This document shows, piece after piece, positions 3 to 28,327 of a DNA stretch of 34,336 nucleotides. The notes under the pieces are model-generated. The model had not been told where the DNA came from. It was given only the letters and a program-made list of their open reading frames with translations, and made no database searches. The stretch covers positions 1 through 34,336 of the forward strand of contig DATKWP010000118.1 of the NCBI GenBank assembly GCA_035529535.1, in the 5' to 3' direction. The DNA comes from Anaerolineae bacterium. Its GTDB lineage: Bacteria > Chloroflexota > Anaerolineae > B4-G1. The translations under genes and the position numbers were made by a program. Numbering within the stretch: position 1 is the stretch's first letter; each line of letters opens with the position of its first letter.

Positions 3-182
3 CCGTGGCAGGATTTCGAGGCCCGCTACGGGAGCGACCTGGAAGAGTCGCCGTACTGGGAGTGGCACGCGCCGGAGACGACGATGGGCCGCCTGCGGGG
101 GCGGGGCTTGCTGGCCGAGACGACCGTGGATGGGGAGTTGCGGGTGGTGGTGCCGGTGGAATTGCGGGAGATCGGAGATTAG
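3..182 (+). CDS. 3' end of an unidentified upstream gene (5'-truncated by the window edge)
   Basis: Frame 3 is open from the window edge to TAG at 180-182 and has G/C-rich third positions: ...PYWEWHAPETTMGRLRGRGLLAETTVDGELRVVVPVELREIGD*. It has no start codon in the window, so it is absent from the ORF track. Track ORF 5..277 in another frame looks like a Gly/Arg-rich shadow. The product is not recognisable. Confidence 0.4.
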   Translation, partial: PWQDFEARYGSDLEESPYWEWHAPETTMGRLRGRGLLAETTVDGELRVVVPVELREIGD

Positions 183-206
183 AGATTGGAGGTTGGAGGT
201 TGGTTG
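168..206. repeat. Tandem heptamer repeat, family I (GAGATCG GAGATTA GAGATTG GAGGTTG GAGGTTG GTTG)
   Basis: Read directly from the sequence: 5.5 units of period 7. The block spans the stop codon (180-182) of the truncated upstream gene. Confidence 0.9.
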
Positions 207-354
207 CTCCCTCCGAGTCCTCCCAAACCTGGTCCCTAATCCCTCCTTTCTACTTCCGACTATATACCTTATGTTAACTTATACCCCTGGGCAACAGTAA
301 CTTGACATAACTGGTTGTCTCGGCGGACTTGTCTTTTCCGGCCCGTTCCCTCAC

Positions 355-382
355 TTGCCCGCCGCTTGCTTTGTGTTAGAAT
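355..382 (+). promoter_or_regulatory. Candidate sigma70-type promoter for the first ctp gene
   Basis: TTGCCC (355-360), 16-nt spacer, TAGAAT (377-382), preceded by TG at 374-375 (extended -10). It lies about 95 nt upstream of ATG 478 in an AT-richer spacer. Confidence 0.35.
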
Positions 383-477
383 ACGCCAAACGGATGAGGG
401 TTTGCGTTCAGAGATTGTCTACCGAGGCTTCAACTAACCGGGGCCACGCGCGACACACGAGTGATGCGATATTCATT

Positions 478-1653
478 ATGTCAAGTTCTACCCGGCGCAC
501 GATTTCGCTCGCGGCGGCCCTCGTGGCCTGTCTGTGCCTGGCCTACGTGGCCGGCTTCGGCGCTTTTCGGGTCTGGCACGCACTGCAACCCTCTGGGCAG
601 CCCGAGGTTCTGGGCGTCTTCTGGGAGGCCTGGGATCTGCTGGAGCGGCATTTCTACGGTGAACTCCCATCGCCGCAGGCGCGCACCTACGGAGCCATCC
701 ACGCAGCGCTGGCCCTGTTGAACGACCCATACACTGTCTTCGTCGAGCCCCAACCCCGCGAACTGGAGCGGGACCGGTTGCGCGGAACGTTCGGTGGCAT
801 CGGCGCCACGCTGTGGCGCAACGCCGAGGGCCGCGTGGTGCTCTTCCCCCTCCCTGATTCCCCCGCCGCGCGGGCGGGTGTCCAGGAAGGGGACCTCCTG
901 GCGGCGGTGGATGGCCTGGCCATCGCCGAGACGGCGACGATGGACGACGTCCGGGCGTGGCTCCAGGGCGAGGCCGGCACCCCCGTCACGCTCACCCTCT
1001 CTCGCCCCCCCACCCCGCCGTTAGACCTCGTCGTCACGCGGGAGGAGATCCAGGTGCCATCTGTCACCTGGCGGGTGCTGGACGTGGCCGCTGACGTGGG
1101 CTACGTGCGCGTCGAGTCCTTCACCGAAAGGACGGGCGACGAAGTGGTGGCCGCCCTGCAAGTGTTGCAGGGGGCCAACGTGTCCGGCCTGGTCCTGGAC
1201 CTGCGGGACAACTCCGGCGGGCTGGTGGACCCGGCGGTGTCCACCGCCAGCCAGTTCCTGCGCGAAGGGGTCGTGCTGGTCCAGTTGAGCCGGGATGGCC
1301 AGGAACGGTCCTTCCCGGTGCAGGCGGGAGGCGTTGCCACCGGCGTGCCGTTGGCCGTGCTGGTCAACGGCGGGACCGCCAGCGCTGCCGAGATCGTGGC
1401 CGGTGCCTTGCAGGATTATGGCCGCGCCCCGCTGGTCGGGGAACGTACCTTCGGCAAGGGGGCGGTACAGTTGATCTACGACCTCTCCGACGGCTCTTCG
1501 CTGCACGTCACCTCGGCGACCTGGCTGACGCCCAACCGGCGCCCGATCAACGGGCAGGGCCTGGCGCCCGACGTCGCCGTGCCGCGTGGCGAGGGGCCCC
1601 AGGACGTGCAACTGGAGCGGGCGGTGGAGTATTTGCGGGGGCATGGCGAATAG
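478..1653 (+). CDS. Carboxyl-terminal processing peptidase, S41 family, with PDZ domain (paralog 1)
   Basis: Track ORF 355..1653 (TTG start) trimmed to ATG 478. MSSSTRRTISLAAALVACLCLAYVAGF is an N-terminal membrane anchor. A PDZ-like segment (GGIGATLWRNAEGRVVLFPLPDSPAARAGVQEGDLLAAVDG) is followed by the S41 Ser/Lys dyad contexts LVNGGTASAAEIVAGALQD and GERTFGKGAVQ. Confidence 0.9.
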   Translation: MSSSTRRTISLAAALVACLCLAYVAGFGAFRVWHALQPSGQPEVLGVFWEAWDLLERHFYGELPSPQARTYGAIHAALALLNDPYTVFVEPQPRELERDRLRGTFGGIGATLWRNAEGRVVLFPLPDSPAARAGVQEGDLLAAVDGLAIAETATMDDVRAWLQGEAGTPVTLTLSRPPTPPLDLVVTREEIQVPSVTWRVLDVAADVGYVRVESFTERTGDEVVAALQVLQGANVSGLVLDLRDNSGGLVDPAVSTASQFLREGVVLVQLSRDGQERSFPVQAGGVATGVPLAVLVNGGTASAAEIVAGALQDYGRAPLVGERTFGKGAVQLIYDLSDGSSLHVTSATWLTPNRRPINGQGLAPDVAVPRGEGPQDVQLERAVEYLRGHGE

Positions 1654-1687
1654 AGATTGGAGATTGGAGATTGGAGATTGGAGATTG
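1653..1687. repeat. Five perfect tandem copies of GAGATTG (family I)
   Basis: The block starts on the last base of the ctp1 stop codon (TAG 1651-1653) and ends 3 nt before ATG 1691 of ctp2. Each unit junction reads GGAG. Confidence 0.95.
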
Positions 1688-1690
1688 GGG

Positions 1691-3031
1691 ATGAGTGGTA
1701 GCCTGCGTAGTGTAGTGAAGGTTGTGCTGGCGTGCACCGTGCTGCTGGCGCTCACGGTGATTGTTTTTGCGGCCGGCTTCGGCTCGGCCTACCTGCTGAC
1801 CGGCGGTGGCGTGCTGCCGGCGTGGCGGACGGCCGCAGCGCCCACGGCGCTGCCGGCGACGCCGGCGGCAGCCCCGACGGCGGCTCCACCGTCGCCGGCA
1901 GCGGGAGAGGCGGAGCAAGAGGCCACTCCCACGCCCACGCTGGTGCCGCTCCCCACTCCCGCGAATGAGGACGAAAAAGCCTTCGCCCTCTTCTGGGAGG
2001 TGTGGGACCTGGTGCAGCGCAATTTCTACGGCGCGCTGCCTGGTATGCAACAGGTCACCTATGCGGCCATCCACGGCATGCTGAGCACGCTGGGGGATGA
2101 TTATACGGCCTTCCTGGAGCCCGAGGTGGCAACCGTCATTCAAGAGGATGCGACCGGCGAATTCGAGGGCATCGGCGCGTTCGTGGACGTGGACGAAGAG
2201 GGCAAAATCGTGCTCGTGGGCATCTTTGAGGGAGGGCCGGCGGAGCAGGCGGGCTTGCTCAAGGGAGACCGCGTGCTGGAAGTGGACGGCGTCTCCGTCG
2301 TCGGGCGCACCCTCTACGAGGCGATCGGCCTGATTCGCGGCCCGGCTGGCAGCGCGGTGACGCTGCTGGTCGAGCGTGCGGAGACGGCGGCGCCGTTCGA
2401 GGTCACGGTGACCCGCGCCCGCCTCGAGATCGCCATCACCGAGTTCGAGATGCGGAGCGACGGCATCGGCTACATCCGGCTGTACGAATTCAGCGCTCCG
2501 GCCAGCGAGCGCATGCAGGCCGGGTTGCGGGAACTCCTCTCGCAGGAGCCGCGCGCCATCATCTTCGACCTGCGTGGGAATCCGGGGGGCTGGCTGGACC
2601 AGGCGGTGGAGGTGACTGACCTCTTTCTGGACGACGGCGTGATCCTCTACGAGCGTTGGAGCGACGGCAAAGAGCAGATGTTCGAGGCGCGCCCGGGGGA
2701 CGTCGCGGAAGAGATCCCGCTGGTGGTGCTGGTGGACGGCGGGAGCGCGAGCGCGTCGGAGATCGTGGCCGGCGCGTTGCAGGACCAGGAACGGGCCACG
2801 TTGATCGGGGAACACACGTTCGGCAAGGGCTCCGTGCAGCGCCCCTTCACGCTCAGCGACGGCTCCGAATTGCGGGTCACGGCGGCCTTGTGGTTCACGC
2901 CGGACGACCGGGCCATCCACGGCCAGGGGCTGCTGCCAGACGTCGAAGTGCTGTGGCCCGAGGAGGGGGTGGAGCCGGACGCCGACCCCCAACTGGAACG
3001 GGCCGTCGAGTACATCCTGACGGGTAAGTGA
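1691..3031 (+). CDS. Carboxyl-terminal processing peptidase, S41 family, with PDZ domain (paralog 2)
   Basis: Track ORF 1586..3031 trimmed to ATG 1691, with GGAG at 1680-1683 seven nt upstream. Order of parts: anchor MSGSLRSVVKVVLACTVLLALTVIVFAAGF, an Ala/Pro-rich linker, a PDZ domain (GIGAFVDVDEEGKIVLVGIFEGGPAEQAGLLKGDRVLEVDG), then LVDGGSASASEIVAGALQD and GEHTFGKGSVQ. Confidence 0.9.
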   Translation: MSGSLRSVVKVVLACTVLLALTVIVFAAGFGSAYLLTGGGVLPAWRTAAAPTALPATPAAAPTAAPPSPAAGEAEQEATPTPTLVPLPTPANEDEKAFALFWEVWDLVQRNFYGALPGMQQVTYAAIHGMLSTLGDDYTAFLEPEVATVIQEDATGEFEGIGAFVDVDEEGKIVLVGIFEGGPAEQAGLLKGDRVLEVDGVSVVGRTLYEAIGLIRGPAGSAVTLLVERAETAAPFEVTVTRARLEIAITEFEMRSDGIGYIRLYEFSAPASERMQAGLRELLSQEPRAIIFDLRGNPGGWLDQAVEVTDLFLDDGVILYERWSDGKEQMFEARPGDVAEEIPLVVLVDGGSASASEIVAGALQDQERATLIGEHTFGKGSVQRPFTLSDGSELRVTAALWFTPDDRAIHGQGLLPDVEVLWPEEGVEPDADPQLERAVEYILTGK

Positions 3032-3498
3032 TGAAGATGACAGGGATCAAGGTCATTGCCACCAACCGCAAGGCCGGCCGCGACTATAGCATCGAAGACC
3101 GCCACGAGGCGGGCCTGGCGCTGGTGGGGACGGAGATCAAATCCGTCCGCGCTGGCATGGTGAATCTGACCGACGGATACGTACAGGTGCGCGATAGGGA
3201 ATTGTGGCTGCTCAACGTCCACATCGCGCCGTACGATCCGGCGGGGAGGCACGGCCACGAGCCGCGCCGGCCGCGCAAACTCCTGCTGCACCGCCAGGAG
3301 ATTGCCCGGCTGACCTCGCGTGTCCAGGAGCGTGGGTACACCATCGTGCCGGTCCGGCTGTATCTGAAGGGAGGTCGGGCCAAGGTGGAGATTGCGCTGG
3401 CGCGCGGCAAACGCCAGTACGACAAGCGCGAGGCGATCGCCCGGCGGGACGCACAACGGGAGATTGACCGGGAGTGGAAGGACCGGGGCAGGCGGTGA
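3031..3498 (+). CDS. smpB: SsrA-binding protein SmpB
   Basis: MKMTGIKVIATNRKAGRDYSIEDRHEAGLALVGTEIKSVRAG...LLLHRQEIARL...LYLKGGRAKVEIALARGKRQYDKRE is a full-length SmpB. ATG 3031 overlaps the ctp2 stop codon (TGATG). GTG 3028 and ATG 3037 are alternative starts. Confidence 0.92.
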   Translation: MKMTGIKVIATNRKAGRDYSIEDRHEAGLALVGTEIKSVRAGMVNLTDGYVQVRDRELWLLNVHIAPYDPAGRHGHEPRRPRKLLLHRQEIARLTSRVQERGYTIVPVRLYLKGGRAKVEIALARGKRQYDKREAIARRDAQREIDREWKDRGRR

Positions 3499-4343
3499 TG
3501 CAAGCCTCGCCGGCGTGCCAGCCCACGCTCTCTGCGGAGAGCCGCCCCACCCCGTCGGCCCTGAACCTCTTCTCCATCGGGCAGATCAACAAACTGCCCC
3601 CCGAGCAAATGCAACAGGTATACCGCTGCCTGGTGCCCCTCGAAATCCTGCCACTGTTCCAGATTGATCCCCAGACGCTGGCCGATCACGAGGGCCGGCC
3701 GTTGTTCGAATGCCGGGCGGGGCGCTCGTCGGTCGAACTCTTCCTGAGGCACGCCTGGGATGCCCAGGACCCGGTGTTGTACGTGCAATTGGCGGATACG
3801 ACCTCAAATCAGATTGAGGTCGTGCTGTTCACCGTCAACGATCCGTACTCCGAGCGTTTCGATACCGATCGCATGCCCGATGGCACGCCCACGTATTTCG
3901 GCACGCTGGCGCGGAACGTCGAGGAGGAGGTGCGGGCCATGGAGGCCGGGCTGGCGCCCGGGCAGGTGCGCCGGGGCCTGGGAGCGACGCGCCGGCTGGT
4001 GCCGGTGCTGGAGCAGTTCGTCGCCGGCCTGCACCACGATGCGTTCTACATGCAACCCCTGGCTTACCACAACGCGATCCTGTTCGAGCGGCTGGGCTTT
4101 TCCTACGCGCTGGGGCTGGGCCGCATGGAGTGGATCCACCAGCAGTTTGTCCTGGGGGGGCTGCTGCACCAGCGGCTGGATGGGTCTACCCCATTCCGGC
4201 GCCCCGGGGCGGAACAGAGCGTGCGGGGCCGCTCGTGGGCGATCCACGATGGCATCCTGGGCGAGCCGTACCGCGGCGTGAAGATGTACAAGCGTGCGAG
4301 CATTCACGCAGGGGTGGTCACCTTCCCCAGCGCGGCGTGGTAA
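3498..4343 (+). CDS. Hypothetical protein with a GNAT-like acyl-CoA N-acyltransferase C-terminal half
   Basis: Track ORF 3474..4343 trimmed to ATG 3498, which overlaps the smpB stop codon by 1 nt (TGATG). VRRGLGATRRLVPVLEQFVAGLHHDAFYMQPLAYHNAILFERLGFSY matches GNAT motif A (R-x-x-G-x-G/A) and the N..A...Y/F.k.GF signature. The N-terminal ~150 aa are not recognisable. Confidence 0.55.
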   Translation: MQASPACQPTLSAESRPTPSALNLFSIGQINKLPPEQMQQVYRCLVPLEILPLFQIDPQTLADHEGRPLFECRAGRSSVELFLRHAWDAQDPVLYVQLADTTSNQIEVVLFTVNDPYSERFDTDRMPDGTPTYFGTLARNVEEEVRAMEAGLAPGQVRRGLGATRRLVPVLEQFVAGLHHDAFYMQPLAYHNAILFERLGFSYALGLGRMEWIHQQFVLGGLLHQRLDGSTPFRRPGAEQSVRGRSWAIHDGILGEPYRGVKMYKRASIHAGVVTFPSAAW

Positions 4344-4351
4344 GAGTAGGG

Positions 4352-4386
4352 CTCAGGTGCCAGTGATCAGGTGTCAGGTGGAGGGT
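4352..4386. repeat. Degenerate tandem heptamers, family IV (CTCAGGT GCCAGTG ATCAGGT GTCAGGT GGAGGGT)
   Basis: Period-7 reading directly after the stop codon of the 3498..4343 gene. Related to the units at 16634-16696. Confidence 0.7.
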
Positions 4387-4488: not shown

Positions 4489-4530
4489 GAGGTTGGGGGC
4501 GACAGGGAAAGACAAGGAGCAAGGAGAGAC

Positions 4531-5748
4531 ATGGGGCAACTGCCCAAATTGCGGCCCGTGGAAGCCCACCCGCTGCTCCACGAGGGCCGGCCTTCTATTC
4601 TGTTGCGTGACCCATTGCGGCTCTCCGCAGAGAGCATCGTCATCCCTCAGCAGTGGGCGCCGCTGCTGGCCCTGTGCGACGGCACGCGGGACGCCAGGGG
4701 ACTGAGCGCTTCCTTGGCCGTCCGCTTCGGAGTGCAGGTACCCCCCGACCTGCTGAGCCGGCTGCTGGCTGCGCTCGACCAGGCGTTGCTGCTGGACAAC
4801 GAGCGCTCCGCACAGGCGCAGGCCCAGGCCCTGACCGCGTACCGCCAGGCCCCCTGCCGCTCGCCCGCCATGGCCGGGCAGTCGTATCCGGCCGACGCAA
4901 GAGCGCTGCGTGCCCTGCTGGACGGCTACCTGGCCGCCGCGGGCGAGGCAGGTCCCGCCGCCACCGGCTGCGGCCTGGTCAGTCCCCACATTGACTACGC
5001 GCGCGGCGGCCCGCTCTACGCCCGGGTCTGGCAGCGGGCCGCCGGGGTGGCCCGGGCGTCCGATTTGGTCGTGTTGTTGGGTACGGACCACTACGGGGCA
5101 GACGGCCGGCTGACGTTGACGCGCCAACACTATAGCACGCCGCTGGGCGTGCTGCCGACGGCGCAGGAGGTCGTGGACGCGCTGGCCCAGGCGCTGGGTG
5201 AGGAGGAATCCTTCGCCGGCGAACTCCACCACCGCAGCGAACACTCCATCGAACTGTCGGCGGTCTGGCTACAGCACGTGCGCCAGGGCCAGCCGTGCCC
5301 GGTGGTGCCGATCCTGTGCGGCTCGTTCGATCACTTTGTGCGCGGCGAGGCGGAGCCGGGCCAGGACCCGGCCATGCGCGCGCTGGCGGACACGCTGCGG
5401 CGGACGACGGCCGGGCGGCAGGTGCTCGTGGTGGCCTCGGCCGATCTCTCCCACGTCGGGCCGGCCTTCGGCGGCGCGCCGCTGAACTTGGTGGGGCGCG
5501 CCCGCGTGAAAGCCGCCGACGAGGAACTGATCGCGCGCATCTGCGCGGGCGACGCGGAAGGGTTTTTTGCCGCCGTGCGGCGCGCTGGCGACCGGTACAG
5601 CGTGTGCGGTCTGCCCCCCATCTACGCAGCGTTGCGCATCCTGGGCCCCGTGCAAGGGGAGGCACTAGCCTACGACCGTTGCCCCGCCGACGAGAACGGC
5701 ACCTCCACCGTGTCCGTATGCGGCATAATCCTCAAACGTGAAACGTGA
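4531..5748 (+). CDS. MEMO1-family protein (AmmeMemoRadiSam system protein B-like) with an N-terminal PqqD-like extension
   Basis: AGGAGA SD lies 4-5 nt before ATG 4531. MEMO signatures are present: GLVSPHIDYARGG, LLGTDHYG, SEHSIELS, VASADLSHVGP, YSVCGLPPIY. The first ~100 aa (ILLRDPLRLSAESIVIPQQWAPLLALCDGTRDARGLSASLAVRFGVQVPPDLLSRLLAALDQALLLD) resemble PqqD/RRE-type domains. Confidence 0.8.
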   Translation: MGQLPKLRPVEAHPLLHEGRPSILLRDPLRLSAESIVIPQQWAPLLALCDGTRDARGLSASLAVRFGVQVPPDLLSRLLAALDQALLLDNERSAQAQAQALTAYRQAPCRSPAMAGQSYPADARALRALLDGYLAAAGEAGPAATGCGLVSPHIDYARGGPLYARVWQRAAGVARASDLVVLLGTDHYGADGRLTLTRQHYSTPLGVLPTAQEVVDALAQALGEEESFAGELHHRSEHSIELSAVWLQHVRQGQPCPVVPILCGSFDHFVRGEAEPGQDPAMRALADTLRRTTAGRQVLVVASADLSHVGPAFGGAPLNLVGRARVKAADEELIARICAGDAEGFFAAVRRAGDRYSVCGLPPIYAALRILGPVQGEALAYDRCPADENGTSTVSVCGIILKRET

Positions 5749-5796
5749 AACGTCACACGCCAAGCGTCAAACTTCCAGCCTCCAACCTCCAACCAA
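5734..5796. repeat. Nine tandem heptamers (AAACGTG x2, AAACGTC, ACACGCC, AAGCGTC, AAACTTC, CAGCCTC, CAACCTC, CAACCAA)
   Basis: Period-7 reading. The first units encode the last residues (KRET*) of the MEMO-like protein. The last units are the reverse complement of family I (TTGGAGG). Confidence 0.8.
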
Positions 5797-6153: not shown

Positions 6154-6181
6154 ATTGTACCCTCAGAATAGGGTTTGTCAA
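6154..6181 (-). promoter_or_regulatory. Candidate sigma70-type promoter for acpP
   Basis: Minus strand: TTGACA (6181-6176), 16-nt spacer, TACAAT (6159-6154). It lies about 40 nt upstream of the acpP ATG. Confidence 0.6.
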
Positions 6182-6190
6182 ACCCACCGT

Positions 6191-6219
6191 TTGACAAGCG
6201 CCGCTAGTCCCAGTATCAT
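6191..6219 (+). promoter_or_regulatory. Candidate sigma70-type promoter for fni and the polyprenyl synthase gene
   Basis: TTGACA (6191-6196), 17-nt spacer, TATCAT (6214-6219). It sits back to back with the acpP -35 element. The predicted 5'UTR contains the heptamer block 6281-6322. Confidence 0.55.
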
Positions 6220-6280
6220 GAACCTGTCATGAAGAACACTCACCCGCTCAGCAAGTTACGATCTCGCAGGTAAAGTCACG

Positions 6281-6322
6281 CATTCCGCATTCCGCATTCG
6301 GCATTCCGCATTCCGCATTACA
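6281..6322. repeat. Six tandem heptamers, family II (CATTCCG x2, CATTCGG, CATTCCG x2, CATTACA)
   Basis: Read directly from the sequence. The block ends 6-12 nt before the fni start codon and runs into the AGAGGGAG SD region. Confidence 0.95.
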
Positions 6323-6334
6323 GAGGGAGTGGCC

Positions 6335-7348
6335 ATGCACAAACAGCGCAAGTCCGACCACATCCGCATCAACCTGCAAGAGGACGTTGACTTCAAGTAC
6401 GTCTCCACGGGCTTTGAGCACTACCGGTTCATCCACTGTGCGCTGCCTGACCTCAATCTCGAGGACGTGGACACCTCGACCATGCTGCTGGGCAAGCGGT
6501 TGGCGGCCCCGCTGCTGATCTCCTCAATGACGGGTGGTACGCCGGAGGCCAGCGCGCTCAATCAGCATCTGGCGGAAGCGGCCCAGGCCGCCGGGATCGG
6601 CATGGGGCTGGGCTCGCAGCGCGCCGCCATCGAAGACCCGGCCCTGGCCGAGACCTACCGCGTGCGCCAGGTGGCCCCCGACGTCCTGTTGATGGCCAAC
6701 CTGGGCGCAGTGCAGTTAAACTATGGCTACGGCCCCGACGAATGCCGCCGGGCCGTCGAAATGGTGGAGGCCGATGCGCTGATCCTGCACCTCAACCCGC
6801 TGCACGAGGCGCTCCAACCCCGAGGGGAGACCCGCTTCGCGGGCCTGTTGCCCAGGATCGAAGCCGTCTGCCGGGCCCTGGAGGTACCCGTCGTGGTCAA
6901 GGAGGTCGGCTGGGGGTTCTCGGAACAGGTGGCCCGCGACCTGGCGGGGGCCGGGGTGGCGGCGCTGGACGTGGCCGGGGCGGGCGGCAGTTCGTGGAGC
7001 CAGGTGGAGATGCACCGCGCTACCGGCGAGCGGGGGCGCCAGGTGGCGGCGGCCTTTGCCGACTGGGGCATTCCCACCGCCGAAAGCCTGCTGATGGCCC
7101 GGCGTGGGGCGCCCGGGCTGCCCCTGATCGCCAGCGGAGGCATACGCGACGGCATCCAGATCGCCAAGGCGCTCGCGCTCGGCGCGACGGCCTGCGGCGT
7201 GGCCGGCCCGTTCCTGCGCGCCGCCGCCGAGTCCGCCGCCGCCGTGGCCGAAGTCATCGCTACGCTGGTGACCCAATTGCGGGTGGCGATGTTCGCGGCG
7301 GGGGCGGGGAATATTCAGGAACTCCAGCATACGCCTCTCTTCACATAG
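6335..7348 (+). CDS. fni: Isopentenyl-diphosphate delta-isomerase, type 2 (FMN-dependent)
   Basis: [46 protein letters not shown] and [20 protein letters not shown] are IDI-2 signatures. ATG 6335 is preferred over GTG 6329 because of the SD spacing. Confidence 0.92.
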
Positions 7349-7380
7349 CACGTTTCACGTTTCACGTTTCACGTTTCACG
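7349..7380. repeat. Tandem heptamers, family III (CACGTTT x4 plus a partial unit)
   Basis: The block starts 1 nt after the fni stop codon (TAG 7346-7348) and ends about 10 nt before the GGAAGGAGGGGA SD of the next gene. Confidence 0.95.
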
Positions 7381-8441: not shown

Positions 8442-8635
8442 ACGTGACCTACGCCTATCCACGATCTTCGTAGGTCACGCTTGCAGCGTGACGAAACCCG
8501 CCCACACACGCGACGGCCGTCACGTTACAAACGTGACCTACGCCTTCCACGATCTTCGTAGGTCACGCTTGCAGCGTGACGAAACCCGCCCACACGCGAG
8601 GGCCGTCACGTTACAAACGTGACCTACACCTACGC
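8442..8635. repeat. 2.2 tandem copies of an ~89-bp unit made of three overlapping palindromic hairpins (REP/BIME-like)
   Basis: Unit starts (ACGTGACC) are at 8442, 8531 and 8617. Hairpins: GTGACCTACG-N15-CGTAGGTCAC (8444-8478, 8533-8566); GTCACGCT-TGC-AGCGTGAC (8474-8492, 8562-8580); GTCACGTT-ACA-AACGTGAC (8519-8537, 8605-8623). The array fills the convergent spacer between stop codons at 8436 and 8630. Confidence 0.9.
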
Positions 8636-10434: not shown

Positions 10435-11694
10435 CTACTTGGACGGCCGTCGTCCGGGCAACAGCCGGACGGCAGCCACGCCGGCGATCCCGAAGACGCC
10501 AGCGGCGAACAAGAAGGGGGCGCGCAGCCCCAGCCACACCGCCAGCGCGCTCCCCATCAGCGGCCCGACGGCGTTGGCCACCGACGCGAAGGTGGCATCC
10601 ATGCCATAGATGATACCCTCCTGGCCCTCCGGCGCCAGCCGGGCCAGCCAGGCACTGACGGAGGCCAGTATCCCTCCCATAGCCAGCCCTGTCCCGGCCT
10701 GCCAAAGCAGCAAGGCGGCGGGACTCCCGGCGAAGGCCTGAGGCACGTAGCACACGACCGAGATGGCCGCACAGGCCAGCAGGATCCAGCGGTAGCCCAC
10801 GCGGTCGCCGAGCCAGCCCAGGCCCAGCGCCCCCACGGCGCCGGCAGCGGCGCTGCCTCCACTGACCAGCCCGGTGATCGAGGCCACGCGGGCGTCCGCC
10901 GGAACGATGGACTGGATGAAGAGCGGCAGCACCGGGCTCAGCAGGTTCGACCCCAGTTTCATCACCAGGCGCACTCCCAGGATGCCCAGCACGGCCGAGC
11001 CCAGCGCCGGCGCCAGCCGGTTCCATAGGCGCGCGCGGGAGGTCGCCCCGCCCACCCCGGCCCCACCCTGTGGCTCCCTGGATGGTGCTACGGGATGGAA
11101 TTCCTCCCGCACGAAGAACAGCACCCCCATCCCGGCCAGGAACAGCAGCGCCCCGGTGACCCAGAAGGCGGCCTGGTAGCCCAGCGTGTCGGCCACCAGC
11201 CCTCCCAGGAGGGGGCCGACCGAGGAGCCCACGTAAACCGCCATCTGTAAGAGGCCCAGCGCGTAGCCGGCGCGCTCGCGGGGGGTGTTGGTGGCGACGA
11301 GAGCGGTGGCCGCCGTGACCGTGCCGGTCAACGCACCTTGCAGCATGCGCAGGATGGCCAATTGCTGCACCGTGCGGGCCAGGCCCATCAGGCCGATCAC
11401 GATGGCTCCACTGAACATGGCCCGCTCGACCATCACCTTGCGGCCACGGCGATCGCTGATCGCCCCCCAGATCGGGCCAAAGATCGCCATGGTCACGGCG
11501 TGAGCGGTGTAGATCAGGCCGGACCAGAGCTTGACCTCCCGTTCGTCCTGCACGCCCAACCGGGGCACGTAGAGCGGCAGCAGGGGCAGCACGACCGAGA
11601 ACCCGACGATGGCCACCAGTTCGGCGAACCAGATCGCGATCAGGTTGCGCCGCCAAGAGGGGAGGGCGTTGGCGGAAAATGTGTGGTGAGACAT
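10435..11694 (-). CDS. MFS transporter (12-TM, DHA1-like)
   Basis: Track ORF 10435..11982 trimmed to ATG 11694 (MSHHTFSANALPSWRRNLIAIWFAELV...). The MFS motif A-like GAISDRRGRKVM lies between TM2 and TM3. Hydrophobic segments repeat throughout. No SD is evident upstream, where heptamer repeats abut the ATG. Confidence 0.8.
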   Translation of the reverse strand: MSHHTFSANALPSWRRNLIAIWFAELVAIVGFSVVLPLLPLYVPRLGVQDEREVKLWSGLIYTAHAVTMAIFGPIWGAISDRRGRKVMVERAMFSGAIVIGLMGLARTVQQLAILRMLQGALTGTVTAATALVATNTPRERAGYALGLLQMAVYVGSSVGPLLGGLVADTLGYQAAFWVTGALLFLAGMGVLFFVREEFHPVAPSREPQGGAGVGGATSRARLWNRLAPALGSAVLGILGVRLVMKLGSNLLSPVLPLFIQSIVPADARVASITGLVSGGSAAAGAVGALGLGWLGDRVGYRWILLACAAISVVCYVPQAFAGSPAALLLWQAGTGLAMGGILASVSAWLARLAPEGQEGIIYGMDATFASVANAVGPLMGSALAVWLGLRAPFLFAAGVFGIAGVAAVRLLPGRRPSK

Positions 11695-11771
11695 GATGCG
11701 TGAAACGTGAAACGTGATGCGTGTTGCGTGGCTGGCACGGAATACGGAACACGGAACACGCACGACGCGAT
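11695..11771. repeat. Eleven tandem heptamers (GATGCGT GAAACGT GAAACGT GATGCGT GTTGCGT GGCTGGC ACGGAAT ACGGAAC ACGGAAC ACGCACG ACGCGAT)
   Basis: The block fills most of the spacer between the mttB-family stop codon (11793) and the MFS start (11694). It mixes family III and family II units, reverse-complemented relative to 7349 and 6281. Confidence 0.9.
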
Positions 11772-16633: not shown

Positions 16634-16696
16634 CTCCAGTCTCCAGTGACCAGGGATCAGTGATCAGTATCCAGGATCAAGCATCGAGTGTCAAGC
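16634..16696. repeat. Nine tandem heptamers, family IV (CTCCAGT x2, GACCAGG, GATCAGT x2, ATCCAGG, ATCAAGC, ATCGAGT, GTCAAGC)
   Basis: The block fills the spacer between the membrane-protein stop codon (16691) and the udk start (16623). On the minus strand, the units closest to udk contribute the GGAGGAGGG SD. Confidence 0.9.
16666..16694 (-). promoter_or_regulatory. Candidate promoter upstream of udk, embedded in the heptamer block
   Basis: Minus strand: TTGACA (16694-16689), 17-nt spacer, GATACT (16671-16666). The -10 matches consensus at only 4 of 6 positions. Confidence 0.35.
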
Positions 16697-20693: not shown

Positions 20694-23504
20694 ATGTCAC
20701 ACGATAGCCAAGCCGCCCGCCGCGAACGCATCCTACTCCTCATCGCCGCCGGTTTCATCCTCACTGGCATCCTGACCCTACGCATTGCGGAACGCGGAAC
20801 GCGGAATGCGGACTACGCCGGCGGGTACGCCGGGTTACGGATTACGGATTACGCATTCGCTTTCTGTTCATTCGCCGCCACGTTCGCCCTCGCCCACGTC
20901 TTGCTGAGCCGTTACCTGCCCGAGCACGACCCGTTCCTGCTGCCGGTGGCGGCCCTGTTGACCGGCTGGGGCCTCCTGCTCATCGGGCGGCTGGCCGCCA
21001 ACTTCCTCGTGCGGCAGACGCTCTGGCTGTGGATCTCTACCGTGGCGCTGTTGGCCACCGTCCGGCAGGGCCGCGACCTGCGCTGGCTGCGGCGCTTTCG
21101 CTACACCTGGCTGTTCGGAGGGTTGGCGCTCCTGGCGGCCACGCTCGTCCTCGGCGTCAACCCCTCCGGCTATGGCCCGCGCCTGTGGCTGGGCGCCGGA
21201 GGCGTCTACTTCCAACCCTCGGAACTGCTGAAACTCCTGATGGTCGTCTACCTGGCCTCTTACCTGGCCGAGAAGGGAGAACTGCTCACCTCGGAGGGCC
21301 GGCGGGTAGGACGCTGGCACCTGCCCCCCCTGGCCTACGCCGGCCCCTTACTGGCAATGTTCGGCCTGGCGGTGGTGCTGCTGGTCTGGCAACAGGACCT
21401 GGGCGCGGCGATGCTGTTTCTCTTCACCTTCCTGGCCATGCTCTACCTGGCGACCGGCCAGTGGGGATACGTCGCCGCCGGCCTGGCCCTCTTCCTCGTC
21501 GCCGGGCTGGCCGGCTACCGGCTGTCCGACCGCATCGCGCTGCGCGTGGACGGCTGGCTGAACCCGTGGCCCGAGGCCTCCGGCCGCGCTTTCCAGATCG
21601 TGCAGTCGCTGCTGGCCTTTGGCGCCGGGGCGGTCTTTGGACAGGGCCTGGGCCTGGGCAGCCCGACCTACATCCCGGCCGTCCACACCGACTTTATCTT
21701 CGCCGCGATCGGCGAAGAATTCGGCCTGGCCGGCGTTCTGGCCGTCGTCGCCCTGTACGCGGCGTTGATGCTGTGCGGCTTCCGCGTCGCCGCCCGCGCG
21801 ACGCGGCCGTTCGAGCGCTTCCTGGCCGCCGGACTGGCCGCCGGGTGGGCCATCCAGGCCTGGGTCATCATGGCCGGCAACGCCAAACTGGCCCCGATTG
21901 CTGGCGTCACCCTGCCCTTCGTCTCCTACGGCGGCAGTTCCCTGCTGACCTCGTTCATCGCGCTGGGCCTCCTCCTCCGCATCTCCAGCACAAGGGTGGT
22001 AAACTGGGAAACTGGTAGATTGGGAACTGGTAAATTGGGAACTGGTAAATTGGGAGATGGTCGCCAATCCACCAATCTACCAATTACCAATCTACCGGCT
22101 ACCAGTCTACCAATCACCAATCTACCAACTACCAGTCTACCAATCACCAATCTACCAACACTGGCCCTCGTGCTATCGCTGGCCCTGGCCCTGCTGGCTG
22201 CCGTGTGCGGCTACTGGGCCATCATGCGCGCCGACGACCTGCGCGCGCGCGACGACAATCCGCGCCGCGTGCTCTACGAGCAGCGGATCGTGCGCGGACG
22301 CATCCTGGACCGGGAGGGGACCGTACTGGCCAGCGTGGAGGTCGGGGACGACGGCACGATCACGCGCCGTTACCCGGTTCCGGAGGCCGCGCCGGTCCTG
22401 GGTTACGCCAGCCTGCGCTATGGCACCGGCGGGATCGAGGCCGCCTTCGACCGTGAATTGCGCGGCGAGGCCGGCCGCAACGACTGGCAAATCGCGTGGG
22501 ACGAACTGCTCCACCGACCCCCGCACGGCCGCGACGTGCAGTTGGCGCTCGACGCGGGGCTGCAGGTCCAGGCCCAACAGGGCCTGGACGGCCAGCGCGG
22601 GGCCCTGGTCTTGCTGGACGCTGCCACCGGCGAGGTTCTGGCCATGGCCTCCAGTCCCACCTACGACCCGCAACACCTGGACGAGGAGTGGGAAGCGCTG
22701 CGCGAGGACCCGGCCGCGCCGCTGGTCAACCGCGCCACCCAGGGCCGCTATCAACCCGGGGCCGCCTTGCAGACGGCCATCGTGGCCGAGGCGCTGAGCG
22801 AGGGACTGGCTACTCTCTCGATACCTGCGGCAGACGCGACGGCACGCCTCACGATCAACGGCTTCGAGTTAGGCTGTGGGGCGGTCCCCTCGCCGCCCTA
22901 CACCCTGGCCACCGCCTACGCGGCGGCCTGCCCGGCCCCTTTCGCCGACCTGGGCGCCCAGTTGGGGGCGGCGGCCCTGGAAAAGATGGTGGAACGGTGG
23001 GCGCTCACCACCCCACCCCCGCTAGAGATGCCGGCCGAGGCAGCCGATTGGAGCGCGGAAACGCTTTCAGGCACGGCGACCCTGGCGGTCGAGGCCATCG
23101 GCCAGGGCATGCTGACCATGTCGCCACTGCAGGCCGCGTTGATGGCCGGCACGCTCGCCAACGAAGGAGAAATGCCCATCCCACGGCTCGTGTTGCGCGT
23201 GTGGGATGCAGAAAACGGCTGGTTGGAACGGGCTGAGGCCGGGGAGCCTCGCCAGGTCCTCACACCCGGCATCGTCTGGGCGCTGCTGGCGACCTGGCGG
23301 CGCTACGACGGGGAAAAGGTCGCTGCGCACTGGGGAGCCGCGGCGGCCGGTGCAGGGCAGCCGCCACACGCCTGGTTCATCGGCGTGGCACCGGCGACGG
23401 GCCAGCCGCGCTACGCCATCGCCGTGCTGGTCGAACACGCTGCCGACCCCGAGAGCGCGGCGCGCATCGGCGCGGCGCTCTTGCAGGCAGCGACGGCCCA
23501 ATAA
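20694..23504 (+). CDS. Fusion protein: RodA-type SEDS peptidoglycan polymerase plus a class-B PBP-like domain with degenerate transpeptidase motifs
   Basis: Residues 1-~435 are SEDS: RERILLLIAAGFIL, DPFLLPVAALLTGWGLLLIGRL, FQPSELLKLLMVVYLASYL, VHTDFIFAAIGEEFGLAG, LPFVSYGGSSLLT. A repeat-encoded linker follows, then a TM helix (LALVLSLALALLAAVCGYWAI). The PBP2/PbpA-like region contains RGRILDREG, LLDAATGEVLAMASSPTYDP, LVNRATQGRYQPGAALQ and HAWFIGVAP. The ORF is a single uninterrupted 936-codon frame. Confidence 0.85.
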   Translation: MSHDSQAARRERILLLIAAGFILTGILTLRIAERGTRNADYAGGYAGLRITDYAFAFCSFAATFALAHVLLSRYLPEHDPFLLPVAALLTGWGLLLIGRLAANFLVRQTLWLWISTVALLATVRQGRDLRWLRRFRYTWLFGGLALLAATLVLGVNPSGYGPRLWLGAGGVYFQPSELLKLLMVVYLASYLAEKGELLTSEGRRVGRWHLPPLAYAGPLLAMFGLAVVLLVWQQDLGAAMLFLFTFLAMLYLATGQWGYVAAGLALFLVAGLAGYRLSDRIALRVDGWLNPWPEASGRAFQIVQSLLAFGAGAVFGQGLGLGSPTYIPAVHTDFIFAAIGEEFGLAGVLAVVALYAALMLCGFRVAARATRPFERFLAAGLAAGWAIQAWVIMAGNAKLAPIAGVTLPFVSYGGSSLLTSFIALGLLLRISSTRVVNWETGRLGTGKLGTGKLGDGRQSTNLPITNLPATSLPITNLPTTSLPITNLPTLALVLSLALALLAAVCGYWAIMRADDLRARDDNPRRVLYEQRIVRGRILDREGTVLASVEVGDDGTITRRYPVPEAAPVLGYASLRYGTGGIEAAFDRELRGEAGRNDWQIAWDELLHRPPHGRDVQLALDAGLQVQAQQGLDGQRGALVLLDAATGEVLAMASSPTYDPQHLDEEWEALREDPAAPLVNRATQGRYQPGAALQTAIVAEALSEGLATLSIPAADATARLTINGFELGCGAVPSPPYTLATAYAAACPAPFADLGAQLGAAALEKMVERWALTTPPPLEMPAEAADWSAETLSGTATLAVEAIGQGMLTMSPLQAALMAGTLANEGEMPIPRLVLRVWDAENGWLERAEAGEPRQVLTPGIVWALLATWRRYDGEKVAAHWGAAAAGAGQPPHAWFIGVAPATGQPRYAIAVLVEHAADPESAARIGAALLQAATAQ
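20781..20860. repeat. About eleven heptamer units inside the SEDS coding region (GCGGAAC x2, GCGGAAT, GCGGACT ... TTACGGA x2, TTACGCA)
   Basis: Period-7 reading. The GCGGAAY units are the reverse complement of family II (6281-6322). The block encodes ...AERGTRNADYAGGYAGLRITDYA... between predicted TM1 and TM2. Confidence 0.8.
22004..22160. repeat. Two opposed tandem-repeat arrays (15-nt period) encoding the SEDS-PBP linker
   Basis: First array, 22004-22060: (GGAACTGGTAAATTG)n, encoding GTGKL repeats. Second array, 22064-22160: (ACCAATCTACCAAYY)n, encoding TNLPx repeats. GGTAGATTGG (22014-22023) is the exact reverse complement of CCAATCTACC, which occurs at 22072, 22087, 22117 and 22147. The units are related to family I. 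Confidence 0.9.
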
Positions 23505-25656: not shown

Positions 25657-25702
25657 GGCCCACCCTCCTCCATCCCCACCCCGTGGTTGTTCGAGTTGGC
25701 TG

Positions 25703-25731: not shown

Positions 25732-25751
25732 TCCACTGTAAGTTCCGGAAC

Positions 25752-25780
25752 TTTCGGGAAGGTGGCGTTTATGATATAAT
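25752..25780 (+). promoter_or_regulatory. Candidate promoter for pdp (extended -10)
   Basis: TGaTATAAT (TATAAT = 25775-25780) with a weak -35 (TTTCGG, 25752-25757). It lies about 33 nt upstream of ATG 25813, which has a GAGGTG SD. Confidence 0.4.
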
Positions 25781-25812
25781 AAGCCGGTAATATCACAGGA
25801 CTGAGGTGAAGC

Positions 25813-27120
25813 ATGCACGCAACAGACGTGATCGCCAGGAAGCGCGACGGCGGCGAACTTTCGCGGGAAGAGATCGAATTCTTCATCCAGGGAGTGACGG
25901 GGGGCGACGTCCCCGACTACCAGGCAGCGGCCTGGCTGATGGCCGTGTACTTGCGCGGCATGACCGACCGGGAGACCACCGACCTGACGCTGGCCATGGC
26001 CCACTCAGGCGACGTGCTCGATCTGAAGGACGTGGTCCCGTTCGCCGTGGACAAGCACTCCACGGGCGGCGTCGGCGACAAGGTCAGCCTGGTGGTAGCG
26101 CCCCTGGTGGCGGCCTGCGACATACCGATCGCCAAGATGACCGGGCGGGGCCTGGGCTTTAGCGGCGGAACGCTGGACAAACTAGAGTCCATCCCTGGCT
26201 ATCGGACCGACCTGACGGAAGCCGAGTTCAAAGCGCAACTGCGAGAGATCGGCATCGTGTTGACCGGGCAGAGCGCTGACCTGGCCCCCGCCGACCGCAA
26301 ATTGTACGCGCTGCGCGACGTGACGGCCACCGTCGAATCCGTGCCCCTCATCGTCAGTTCCATCATGAGCAAGAAACTCGCTGCCGGCACCGATGCCATC
26401 GTGCTGGACGTCAAGATGGGCAACGGCGCGTTCATGAAGACGCTGGAGCAAGCGGAGACGCTGGCCGAGGCCTTGGTCCGCTTGGGTAAGCACGCCGGAC
26501 GCCACGTCGTGGCCCTGATCTCCGACATGAACCAGCCGCTGGGCTGGGCGGTGGGAAACGCGCTGGAAGTACGGGAAGCGATCAACACCCTGCACGAAGG
26601 GGGCCCCGCCGACTTCCGCGAGCACTGCATGATCGTGGCGGCCGAGTTACTGATGCTGGGCGGCAAGGCCGCCGATGGCAGTGCTGCACTCACGCTGGCG
26701 CTGGACACCCTGACCTCTGGAGCCGCCTGGCACAAGTTCAGCCAGTTGGTGGAGGCCCAGGGAGGTGACGTGCGCTACATCGAGGACCCGGACCGCTTGC
26801 CGAAGGCCCGGCTGATCGAACCGGTGCCAGCGCCGCGCAGCGGTTACCTCTCGGGTGTGAATGCCGCCGAGATCGGGAGCGCCGTCGTGGAGCTGGGTGG
26901 CGGGCGGATGAAGAAGGGGGACTCGGTTGACCCCAGCGTGGGGGTCATACTACACTACAAGGTGGGCGACCTGGTACAGAGGAACACGCCGCTATTCACC
27001 ATCCACGCCAGCGATGAGACGAAACTGGCCGCGGCCCGCACGCGCTTGCTGGCGGCGCACACCTTCAGCGATCGCCCCGTGCCACGGTTGCCGCTGTTCT
27101 ACCGGCGCATCGCCGAATAG
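25813..27120 (+). CDS. pdp: Pyrimidine-nucleoside (thymidine) phosphorylase
   Basis: DVIARKRDGGELSREEIEFFIQG, AAWLMAVYLRGMT, VDKHSTGGVGDK and GRGLGFSGGTLDKLESIPGY are family signatures. The match is full-length at 435 aa. Confidence 0.93.
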   Translation: MHATDVIARKRDGGELSREEIEFFIQGVTGGDVPDYQAAAWLMAVYLRGMTDRETTDLTLAMAHSGDVLDLKDVVPFAVDKHSTGGVGDKVSLVVAPLVAACDIPIAKMTGRGLGFSGGTLDKLESIPGYRTDLTEAEFKAQLREIGIVLTGQSADLAPADRKLYALRDVTATVESVPLIVSSIMSKKLAAGTDAIVLDVKMGNGAFMKTLEQAETLAEALVRLGKHAGRHVVALISDMNQPLGWAVGNALEVREAINTLHEGGPADFREHCMIVAAELLMLGGKAADGSAALTLALDTLTSGAAWHKFSQLVEAQGGDVRYIEDPDRLPKARLIEPVPAPRSGYLSGVNAAEIGSAVVELGGGRMKKGDSVDPSVGVILHYKVGDLVQRNTPLFTIHASDETKLAAARTRLLAAHTFSDRPVPRLPLFYRRIAE

Positions 27121-27149
27121 CCAGGGCTACGAGGATCACGAAAAGCGTA

Positions 27150-27168
27150 GTCACGTTTGCAACGTGAC
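27150..27168. repeat. Isolated palindromic hairpin GTCACGTT-TGC-AACGTGAC (same family as 8474/8519)
   Basis: Perfect 8-bp arms with a 3-nt loop. It sits between the convergent stop codons of pdp (27120) and the SBP gene (27170). The flanking GCGTAGTCACG resembles CGTAGGTCACG in the 8.4-kb array. It may act as a bidirectional terminator, but there is no U tract. Confidence 0.7.
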
Positions 27169-27169
27169 T

Positions 27170-28327
27170 TTATCGCAGTTGTTCGGGCAGGCCGGAGGGC
27201 CTTGCCACACTGTCCGCGCCAATCCGATACCAGAATAACGGCGCGCTGCCCCAATTCCGCCCACCATCGAACTCGATCTGCCCCAGGAGGCCGGTTCGCT
27301 TCACGGTCGCCAGCGCCGCCGCTACTCCCTCTCGCGTCGGCGTTCCGTGGGCGACGACGTCCTGCTCCAACGCCTCCAATAATACCCACGTCGCCTCGTA
27401 GGCCGGCAACGCCAGCGGCCCGGGCGGCGGCACGTCGGGGGAGAGGGCACGGTAGGCGGCTATGAATTCGGCGCTCCCTGCTACGTCGGCCGGCAAGGGC
27501 CACGGCGTGACGAAGAGCGCCCCTGTGGCCACCTCGCCCGCCACGGCAGCAAAGTCGGCCGCGGCCAGGTCCGGCCCGCCCAGGAAGGTCCCCTCCCAGC
27601 CGGTCCCGCGCAAGGCCGCCACCACCTCTCCCGCCCTCACCGGATCGGCGTCACAGACCACCGCGTTTGCTCCCGACGCGGAAACCGCCTGAAGCCAGGC
27701 CGGGTCGCTCGAAGAGGCGGCGGCCAGGAGTGGCGTCTGGCGCTGAGAAGCGGCTGCGGCCAAGGCCGCCCCCAGCGGGCCACCGTCGGTCACCAGGGCG
27801 AGCCTGACCGGCCCCGAGTGCGCCTCGACCCGCTCCAGCAGCGCTTCGGCCAGCGCCTCAACGGGGGGACCCAGGCGGTACACGGCGGCCTCGCCCTGGC
27901 CGAGGTCAGGAGCCAGCGCTGCCGGGGCGACGAGCGGGATGCCCGCCTGGGCGTAGATGCTCGCTGCCGCCGCGGTCGCCCCCTCGCGGAAGTGGCCGAT
28001 GGCGGCGACGACGTCCGGGTCCACCGCCAGTTTGCGGGCCTGCTGGGTGGCCTGGTCCAGATCGGCCCCGTCGTCGTAGGCCACCAGTTCGACGTTATAG
28101 CCCCCCACCCCGCCCGCACCATTGGCCTCCCGCAACGCCAGCCTGGTAGCGTAGATGACGTCGTAGCCCACGTAGCGGTAGCGCCCCTCGAACGGAGCGA
28201 CCAGCCCGATCTTCACCGTGGGGCGGACGGTGCCGGGGAAGCGGCAGGCAGCCAAAAGAAACACGCAACACACAATACAGAACACGTGTTGCGTATTGCG
28301 TGTACCGTGACTACTGCGCCCCGCCAC
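27170..28327 (-). CDS. Periplasmic-binding-protein type 1 (LivK/Peripla_BP_6-like) ABC substrate-binding lipoprotein
   Basis: VKIGLVAPFEGRYRYVGYDVIYATRLALREANGAGGVGGYNVELVAYDDGADLDQATQQARKL and AAIGHF fit the branched-chain amino acid/amide SBP family. A lipobox-like LLAAC follows the hydrophobic VFCIVCCVF. The start is uncertain: ATG 28327 overlaps the mltG 3' end by 17 nt. No permease or ATPase genes are adjacent. Confidence 0.75.
   Translation of the reverse strand: MAGRSSHGTRNTQHVFCIVCCVFLLAACRFPGTVRPTVKIGLVAPFEGRYRYVGYDVIYATRLALREANGAGGVGGYNVELVAYDDGADLDQATQQARKLAVDPDVVAAIGHFREGATAAAASIYAQAGIPLVAPAALAPDLGQGEAAVYRLGPPVEALAEALLERVEAHSGPVRLALVTDGGPLGAALAAAASQRQTPLLAAASSSDPAWLQAVSASGANAVVCDADPVRAGEVVAALRGTGWEGTFLGGPDLAAADFAAVAGEVATGALFVTPWPLPADVAGSAEFIAAYRALSPDVPPPGPLALPAYEATWVLLEALEQDVVAHGTPTREGVAAALATVKRTGLLGQIEFDGGRNWGSAPLFWYRIGADSVARPSGLPEQLR
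28259..28314. repeat. Eight heptamer units forming an imperfect ~50-bp palindrome centred on AACACGTGTT (28281-28290)
   Basis: The units are AAACACG CAACACA CAATACA GAACACG | TGTTGCG TATTGCG TGTACCG TGACTAC. They are related to family III. The block lies inside the predicted signal-peptide coding region of the SBP gene and reaches the mltG stop codon. Confidence 0.8.

Follow-up and report, generated by a model that had tools for sequence, protein, structure and literature searches.

Heptanucleotide tandem arrays in an order of Anaerolineae (Chloroflexota): probable slippage-prone microsatellites in spacers, gene ends and protein loops

The stretch of DNA considered here (the window, 34,336 nucleotides) is contig DATKWP010000118.1 (C118) of a draft Anaerolineae genome (GCA_035529535.1, here G000), and the elements in question are short tandem arrays, made of heptanucleotide and some octanucleotide units, that lie between and within its genes. 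These arrays are endemic to one order of Anaerolineae within the Chloroflexota. They are probably heptanucleotide microsatellites of the type known as short tandemly repeated repetitive (STRR) sequences or long simple-sequence repeats (LSSRs), which change in length by slippage of whole units, are sometimes copied from one locus to another, and are filtered by selection into spacers, gene ends and permissive loops. What is new here is the occurrence of heptamer arrays in a new phylum, the unusually large share of them that lies in frame within genes, and a reproducible association with genes of the PF05635 family.

The arrays are far too numerous to be due to chance. The draft comprises 3.49 Mb in 656 contigs at 64% GC; Tandem Repeats Finder (TRF) was applied to the window and to the whole draft, window blocks were also checked by eye, and one shuffled genome and one Markov-3 genome served as chance controls. 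Period 7 is the top tandem-repeat period of the draft, with 677 TRF rows covering 21.7 kb. Period-7 arrays of at least four copies number 339, compared to 2 in the shuffled and 0 in the Markov-3 genome; at a TRF score of at least 50 there are 247 and none in either control, and 101 period-8 arrays reach four copies, compared to 0-2 in the controls. When adjacent arrays are merged, 382 blocks (18.1 kb) are obtained on hundreds of contigs, and 91 of these are composites of different units. Thus, the original prediction, which was made from the window alone and proposed a genome-wide class of element, is borne out. It had also sorted the arrays into a few recurring families found in both orientations; this grouping was right, but across the genome there are 162 canonical units, mainly of the CACGNNN and AATCNNN types. 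The commonest are CACGTTT (58), GCGGATT (58), GCGTGTT (42), GGAGATT (31), GATCCCT (29) and CCGCATT (26); the top unit families have no G-tracts, and the median array contains 4-5 copies. (An octamer family, AAGGAGAC, forms 25 arrays in the draft, with as many as 17.5 copies and a Shine-Dalgarno-like AGGAG in each unit; examples lie at C633:2996-3135, C590:470-577 and window positions 4506-4539, and those found inside open reading frames (ORFs) are almost all in the sense orientation.)

The arrays are hypermutable. Seven independent assemblies of near-identical strains, consisting of five that encode the exact acyl-carrier protein of the window and two near-identical copies of the SEDS-PBP gene (see below) from a metagenome scan, were compared over ~12 kb at 97-99.7% identity. 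The same arrays are present in all seven, which excludes an assembly artefact. At 98-99.7% identity, strains are distinguished by indels of 7 or 14 nt within arrays, and in spacer arrays the indels are exactly of these sizes (at 5764, 5785 and 6292): block 5764-5796 differs by one 7-nt unit at each of two points, 5764 and 5785, and the array in the fni leader (6279-6322) is two units (14 nt) shorter in one strain. Outside arrays, the five comparisons at 98% identity or above yielded only two 1-nt indels. Within the SEDS-PBP coding sequence, the array indels among the three strains compared are 12, 30, 30 and 90 nt, all multiples of 3. In particular, an 85-kb metagenome contig (L065, 99.4% identical) has a 12-nt gap at array 20787-20857, and the 30- and 90-nt differences fall in the linker arrays at 21997-22159. 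The original prediction had pictured an active class of element and had proposed a comparison of copy number between strains as a check; whole-unit differences are indeed what is observed. These unit-sized indels suggest that length changes would arise by replication slippage or by unequal exchange.

The arrays are not placed at random with respect to genes. Intergenic blocks number 147 compared to the 37 expected at random (4x) and blocks over a stop codon 79 compared to 14 (5.6x), while ORF-internal blocks are depleted (138 compared to 321). Consequently, the concentration at gene boundaries first noted in the window holds for the genome, but the impression that the longer spacers consist mostly of arrays is a local one, as the median intergenic block takes up 35% of its spacer. 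A placement of this kind might be expected if the arrays were cis-regulatory boundary elements, acting as terminators, RNase III stems, rows of Shine-Dalgarno sequences (GGAG in GGAGATT, AAGGAGAC), G-quadruplexes (the GGGATCA family) or leader elements for translation or mRNA stability. Besides the enrichment at stop codons and in spacers, this explanation is favored by the stable hairpins predicted for ~20% of the longer blocks, by the terminator-like sequence at 28260-28297 on the minus strand, by the GAGATTG array at 1653-1690, which sets a GGAG 7 nt ahead of an ATG, by several AAGGAGAC octamer arrays that end immediately upstream of start codons, and by the position and strand preferences of the G-rich arrays of Xanthomonas (Rehm 2015, PMC4692102). 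However, in spacers of co-directional genes no major family has a sense/antisense bias (CACGTTT 13:7, GCGTGTT 8:9). This includes GGAGATT, whose 3:3 orientation led to the rejection of these arrays as a supply of Shine-Dalgarno sequences. In addition, the window has no excess of terminator-like sites over shuffles, and the hairpin at 28260-28297 is the only one that coincides with an array, on which grounds a terminator role was also rejected. Given the lack of spacer strand bias and of enriched terminator patterns, a general strand-specific role of the spacer arrays at the level of RNA (leader, terminator or Shine-Dalgarno) is unlikely, and the roles in transcript boundaries or translation initiation that the original prediction had offered fit poorly. 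Furthermore, copy number varies between near-identical strains, identical units are also found inside ORFs, most families lack G-tracts, and purifying selection alone predicts the boundary enrichment. We therefore consider the cis-regulatory explanation improbable, and most spacer arrays would have no strand-specific cis-regulatory function.

About a third of the blocks are internal to ORFs and in frame with them, a feature missed in the summary of the original prediction. All 88 blocks that lie at least 150 nt inside an ORF are in open frames, and for 82 of these both flanks score best in the frame of the ORF. Pfam searches place one array between the catalytic and anticodon-binding domains of valyl-tRNA synthetase (ValRS), one in the Mo subunit of a xanthine-dehydrogenase-type molybdopterin oxidoreductase, and others in loops of several PMT_2 glycosyltransferases; the domains around the arrays show that the host ORFs are real genes. 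The genic arrays are strongly oriented (AATCCGC 25:6, AATCTCC 11:3, AAATCGC 8:0, AACCTCC 8:0, CTCCATT 7:0), and the peptides they are predicted to encode are enriched in S, P, Q, N, R and I, with heptapeptide repeats such as SAIRNPQ, SNLQSPI and SRFTFHV. Inside genes, the common orientations are only those with stop-free peptides rich in Ser, Pro, Gln, Asn and Arg. Together, the orientation bias and the predicted composition indicate that selection is likely to act on the array-encoded peptide. Decay of the coding arrays was rejected, since they equal spacer arrays in copy number and purity.

An example within the window is ORF 20694-23504 (936 aa), in which a SEDS (FtsW/RodA) domain is fused to a class-B PBP transpeptidase. 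Its orthologs all come from metagenome-assembled genomes (MAGs) of Anaerolineae/Anaerolineales. In an alignment with these orthologs, the array at 20787-20857 appears as a 12-aa insertion, and orthologs have heptamer arrays of other but related units at this site; the linker between the two domains is a variable, repeat-coded segment in many of them. (Relatives keep the fusion itself at 56-72% identity, and Anaerolinea-like genomes at ~40%. Two orthologs, L002 and L004, have in common an extra insertion (…PSTGLRAG…) in a SEDS loop that has no insertion in the window; TRF does not flag it as a heptamer array.)

Arrays within genes could in principle be contingency loci, at which slippage by 7 nt toggles genes on and off (phase variation), especially genes for surface glycosyltransferases of the PMT_2 type. 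Unit slippage is real, a 7-nt step does shift the frame, and membrane glycosyltransferases of the PMT_2 type contain 7 of the 10 longest in-frame blocks. Nevertheless, arrays are also present in essential housekeeping genes (ValRS, SEDS-PBP), the differences in coding arrays among three strains are all multiples of 3, the deep-genic blocks are in open frames without exception, and no frameshifted allele was seen in the assemblies of those three strains. Phase variation is thus very improbable as the explanation of the arrays, and, like cis-regulation, it is a poor fit to the data.

Evidence that arrays also move between loci comes from composite modules. The composite [CAAATCG/CAAATCAG]n-[CAATCCG]n-[CAATCTC/CATTCTC]n recurs, its parts always in one order, in six different ORFs that have no homology to each other at the array positions (masked blastp). 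Its 21-mer junction occurs six times in G000 but only once each in 2 of 40 relatives, a distribution that points to probable recent copying within the genome. Adjacent arrays are also polar: (AAACGTG)n followed by (CGTGTTG)n is found 10 times and the opposite order once, and the second-commonest pair has an order ratio of 6:1. We infer that, in addition to changing in length, arrays may be copied between loci through ectopic conversion or template switching. Such copying would account for the identical composite junctions at non-homologous sites, for the polar order, and for arrays that are followed by their reverse complement. Selection would then leave arrays to pile up in spacers, at the 3' ends of genes (frequently as the source of the stop codon) and, in frame, in loops and linkers of proteins.

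The distribution of the arrays among relatives is patchy. In a panel of 41 genomes of the same order, representing three families, four successive CACG-N3 units were counted with the reversed pattern as control. The pattern is found in 31 of the 41 genomes and in all three families, with 0 to 872 matches per genome (289 in G000) and near zero for the control; AATCCGC x3 is found in 12 of the 41, and TRF applied to a single contig stretch of 0.7-20 kb per genome in 20 relatives gives an equally patchy picture. In a Chloroflexota sample, 32 of 301 have any match, and the load is heavy in only a few. (Distant Chloroflexota can have other period-7 arrays: G202 has 577 matches, of CACGACC/CACGATC, and G193 and G066 match only the reversed control pattern, GCAC-N3.) The repertoire of units is therefore common to several genera, and its abundance is very variable.

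Several points weigh against unit slippage and occasional copying as the explanation. The common repertoire extends across genera whose orthologs are only 60-70% identical. Slippage of arbitrary 7-mers without constraint predicts otherwise, and this hints at a sequence-specific generator or partner. Simple slippage also does not yield the 17 adjacent array pairs that are mutually reverse-complementary, nor the degree of folding: when blocks of at least 40 nt were scored by ViennaRNA z-scores relative to shuffles, 62 of 314 (~20%) had z < -3, compared to 5 of 314 random segments. The length and purity of the coding arrays are odd if single-unit slippage is frequent, as each event would frameshift a gene such as that for ValRS. 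The specific bracketing of PF05635 genes by inverted arrays, described next, is a further point of this kind. Finally, the draft is a fragmented MAG (88% complete, ~6% contamination), and the gene models, which come from a purpose-made codon-bias finder, are crude, with uncertain starts.

PF05635, whose Pfam name is 23S rRNA intervening-sequence protein, is a family that we take to be an Avd-like four-helix bundle. G000 has two PF05635 genes, on contigs C88 and C190, and both lie within inverted octamer arrays (Table 1). In 17 relatives, 14 of 20 PF05635 genes lie within inverted arrays at E < 1e-3, compared to none of 136 control positions taken from those loci. No general excess of inverted over direct related pairs is seen at distances of 150-3000 nt (19 inverted, 31 direct), which argues that bracketing is particular to PF05635 and a small number of other genes rather than a general rule. 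(Two other genes are also bracketed: the pyruvate-kinase-like gene C462:2803-4438 lies within two nested pairs of inverted related heptamer arrays, and the 307-aa ORF C497:1988-3061 likewise lies within such arrays. These cases may be due to chance, given the density of arrays at gene ends.)

This bracketing raises the possibility that the arrays are cis-elements of PF05635 cassettes and the orphan arrays their non-autonomous derivatives, with the protein, or machinery that it recruits, generating, binding, processing or mobilising arrays in a RAYT/REP-like manner. Consistent with this, the number of PF05635 genes (0-16 per genome) correlates with CACG-array load across the 41 genomes (Spearman 0.61, p 2.5e-5, without phylogenetic correction), and units of the cassette arms are also found as orphans: CAAATCAG/CAAATCGG forms 22 arrays in G000, including the composite modules inside genes, and GGGAGTA is present at no fewer than 40 loci (at least) in G015, which has only 10 PF05635 genes. 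Moreover, the nearest solved structures to the PF05635 protein include XCC0516 from Xanthomonas campestris, a species with heptamer arrays and 70 convergent (inverted) array pairs (PMC4692102). On the other hand, the window has 12 blocks and no PF05635 gene, so that its arrays are at best orphans; the dominant orphan units (CACGTTT, GCGGATT, GCGTGTT) differ from the arm units of the G000 cassettes; and G000 is among the genomes with the highest array loads with just two genes, whereas G004 has four genes and no CACG arrays. The correlation ignores both phylogeny and general repeat richness, and the PF05635 count also follows genome size (rho 0.46). It may be that PF05635 genes simply lodge in pre-existing hairpins. 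To our knowledge, no activity of the family on DNA repeats has been reported, and a literature search for a link between heptamer repeats and PF05635 proteins found none. On balance, we regard the cassette explanation as unlikely. The same holds for its broadest form, also a doubtful proposition, in which the 7/8-mer arrays and PF05635 would be a single system and the orphan arrays and hairpins, including those in protein loops, its offspring by copy-and-paste or template switching. Microsatellites that slip by whole units and are sometimes copied remain, in our judgment, the probable explanation.

Microsatellites of this type have precedents in several lineages. Heptanucleotide STRR sequences of cyanobacteria were reportedly described by Mazel et al. 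in 1990, and STRRs are present inside the RNase P RNA of cyanobacteria; as a parallel, RNase P RNA (RF00010) was sought in G000, but it was not found in this 88%-complete draft. The term STRR is in use for the cyanobacterial repeats (PMC4748335). Like these, the Anaerolineae arrays are tandem 7-nt units in a few to a few dozen copies, belong to several families, and are dispersed over hundreds of loci in both orientations, mostly between genes and with no established function. Unlike them, they are found in Chloroflexota rather than in a heterocystous cyanobacterium, they include no arrays of the classic units (0 each in G000 for CCCCAGT, TTGGTCA and CAACAGT), and a large share of them is in frame. 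More generally, the units that are classic for cyanobacteria, Xanthomonas and Beggiatoaceae form few or no arrays in G000.

Two other kinds of element resemble the arrays in part. Rickettsia palindromic elements are dispersed palindromes of 100-150 bp that are found in frame inside protein genes. The arrays share with them the presence of short repeats in frame in protein genes, tolerated as surface loops, but the Rickettsia elements are not tandem 7-mers and do not vary by unit slippage. In 23S rRNA intervening sequences, an S23p/PF05635 ORF lies inside a long stem. Here too PF05635 genes are found in long inverted-repeat stems (2 of 2 in G000, 14 of 20 in relatives), but their stems are arrays of tandem 7/8-mers, and protein genes rather than rRNA flank the cassettes.

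Mrazek, Guo and Shah (2007), in the excerpted account given in PMC4679880, described LSSRs with units of 5-11 nt, heptanucleotides being the commonest, in hosts that include Burkholderia, Actinobacteria and Xanthomonas. The excerpted account matches the present arrays in the predominance of heptanucleotides, in free-living and often GC-rich hosts, and in slippage as the proposed driver; its two hallmarks, tracts beyond the expectation from composition and whole-unit polymorphism between strains, are both seen here. It differs in that coding repeats there have units that are multiples of three, while here 7-nt units are common in coding regions, and Chloroflexota is not among the host lineages named in that excerpt. 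Rehm et al. (2015) reported ~180 dispersed arrays of GGGAATC in Xanthomonas, with GGGNATC in Xanthomonas and Nostoc (PMC4692102). Those repeats, like the ones described here, have a GC-rich host, a variable copy number and lengths that differ between related genomes; they favor the spacers of aligned ORFs, and many of them form convergent (inverted) pairs. However, they are built from one G-rich, quadruplex-forming unit with a preference for four units and with strand and position biases, whereas here there are many unit types, mostly without G-tracts (GGGAATC forms no arrays in G000 and GGGGATT five, and the G3-bearing AGGGATC family accounts for 29 of 664), and spacer strand bias is lacking. 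The TAACTGA direct repeats of marine Beggiatoaceae (MacGregor 2015, PMC4679880) are also heptamer arrays, in a filamentous bacterium, with intergenic concentration next to start codons; they differ in having a single unit that is directional upstream of starts, with a proposed translational role, in place of the many units without directionality seen here. The supposition that heptamers are not a described feature of GC-rich non-cyanobacterial lineages is thus outdated, as Burkholderia, Actinobacteria (both from the excerpted account in PMC4679880) and Xanthomonas (PMC4692102) attest. A search of the literature for heptamer repeats in Chloroflexi/Anaerolineae found none.

Within the window there are 12 blocks in total (Table 1). 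TRF and direct reading recovered every block that the original prediction had listed, at most a few bases from where it had been placed, and TRF added one, CGGATTA x3.9 at 20831-20857. Two entries need amendment: the array placed at 22004-22160 is real, but its period is 15 nt (7+8) rather than purely 7, and the block at 28259-28314 is present by direct reading but is degenerate and inverted, was missed by TRF, and folds into a hairpin of 15 pairs with a T-rich tail after it. The proximity to starts and stops that had been claimed for the window blocks holds as well. Array 1653-1690 makes up the entire spacer from the TAG (1651-1653) of the first S41 peptidase gene to the ATG (1691-1693) of the second; array 7349-7380 begins 1 nt past the fni stop (7346-7348); block 11694-11760 takes up the greater part of the spacer that separates two minus-strand genes, where it abuts a start codon (11692-11694); and arrays enclose two stop codons, at 180-182 and 5746-5748. 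In the latter case, the array provides the last codons, TGA stop included, of the Memo-like gene 4531-5748 (so labelled from a Pfam Memo match on the orthologous gene). Block 16634-16696 fills the spacer of the minus-strand genes 15985-16623 and 16691-17437. (Two other features of the window lie near arrays or genes named here. Back-to-back, near-consensus sigma-70-like promoters, with 11/12 matches each, are present at 6154-6219, for acpP on the minus strand and fni on the plus strand, and the CGCATTC array is downstream of the predicted fni promoter, in the leader. At 8442-8632, in the convergent spacer past the polyprenyl synthase gene, there is an 88-bp tandem repeat (x2.2) with hairpin-forming sub-repeats (CGTGACCTACG...CGTAGGTCACG), which is not a heptamer array.)

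Table 1. Tandem arrays of the window, followed by the arms of the two PF05635 cassettes of G000
Array (unit and copies)	Position	Strand	Location	Source
(GGAGATT/GGAGGTT) x5.3	167-206 (TRF core 167-203)		TAG stop 180-182 of the 5'-truncated ORF 3-182 inside	TRF, sequence, gene model
(GAGATTG) x5.7, 96% match	1653-1692		Between two S41 peptidase genes	TRF, sequence
Degenerate (TCAGGTG) x4, 73% match (weakest block)	4353-4386 (TRF core 4353-4380)		10 nt past stop 4341-4343 of gene 3474-4343	TRF, sequence
(AAACGTG) x2.9	5734-5753		End of Memo-like gene 4531-5748	TRF, sequence
(AACCTCC/GGAGGTT) x3.6 (TRF core 5770-5794)	5764-5796		Convergent spacer before acpP	TRF, strain comparison
(CGCATTC) x5.9 (TRF core 6279-6319)	6279-6322		fni 5' leader, between promoter-like site 6191-6219 and ATG 6335	TRF, sequence
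(CACGTTT) x4.6, 100% match	7349-7380		Spacer between fni and polyprenyl synthase gene	TRF, sequence
Composite GTGAAAC/GATGCGT/GTTGCGT, then CACGGAA x3.6	11694-11760 (TRF parts 11694-11730 and 11736-11760)			TRF, sequence, gene model
(CCAGTGA/GATCAGT) x3.7	16634-16696 (TRF core 16643-16668)			TRF, sequence, gene model
(GCGGAAC) x3.7 (20787-20812) + (CGGATTA) x3.9 (20831-20857)	20787-20857	+	In frame, first loop of SEDS (FtsW/RodA)	TRF, sequence, ortholog alignment
Opposed 15-nt (7+8) arrays, TGGTAAATTGGGAAC x3.9; ACCAATCTACCAATT x5.9	21997-22159	+	SEDS-PBP linker	TRF, sequence
Degenerate inverted heptamer block (AACACGC... / ...GTGTTGCG)	28259-28314	-	Junction of two minus-strand genes	Sequence, hairpin search
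Cassette arms GTGTGGGG x5.2 / CTCCCACA x6.4			Around PF05635 gene C88:1865-2379	
Cassette arms CAAATCAG x6.5 / GATTTGCT x2.6			Around PF05635 gene C190:2336-2867	

Heptanucleotide arrays were first recognised in cyanobacteria (1990) and subsequently in Xanthomonas, Burkholderia and Beggiatoaceae, and there is still no agreement on how they arise or what they do. The Anaerolineae lineage offers a well-sampled natural experiment: some of its genomes have no arrays and others hundreds, the arrays change between strains, and a third of them lie within proteins. Essential proteins are among these, and in them the arrays create variable loops and domain linkers. The lineage should therefore be useful for the study of repeat-driven remodelling of proteins and of the factors that render a genome permissive for 7-nt slippage. 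The bracketing of PF05635 genes provides a concrete candidate partner; if arrays and PF05635 did form one system, and if this were also true in Xanthomonas and cyanobacteria, the decades-old STRR puzzle would gain a genetic partner and a testable mechanism. On the practical side, the arrays inflate ORF calls, give false starts and stops, and break MAG assemblies, and their masking or flagging is advised in the annotation of Chloroflexota.

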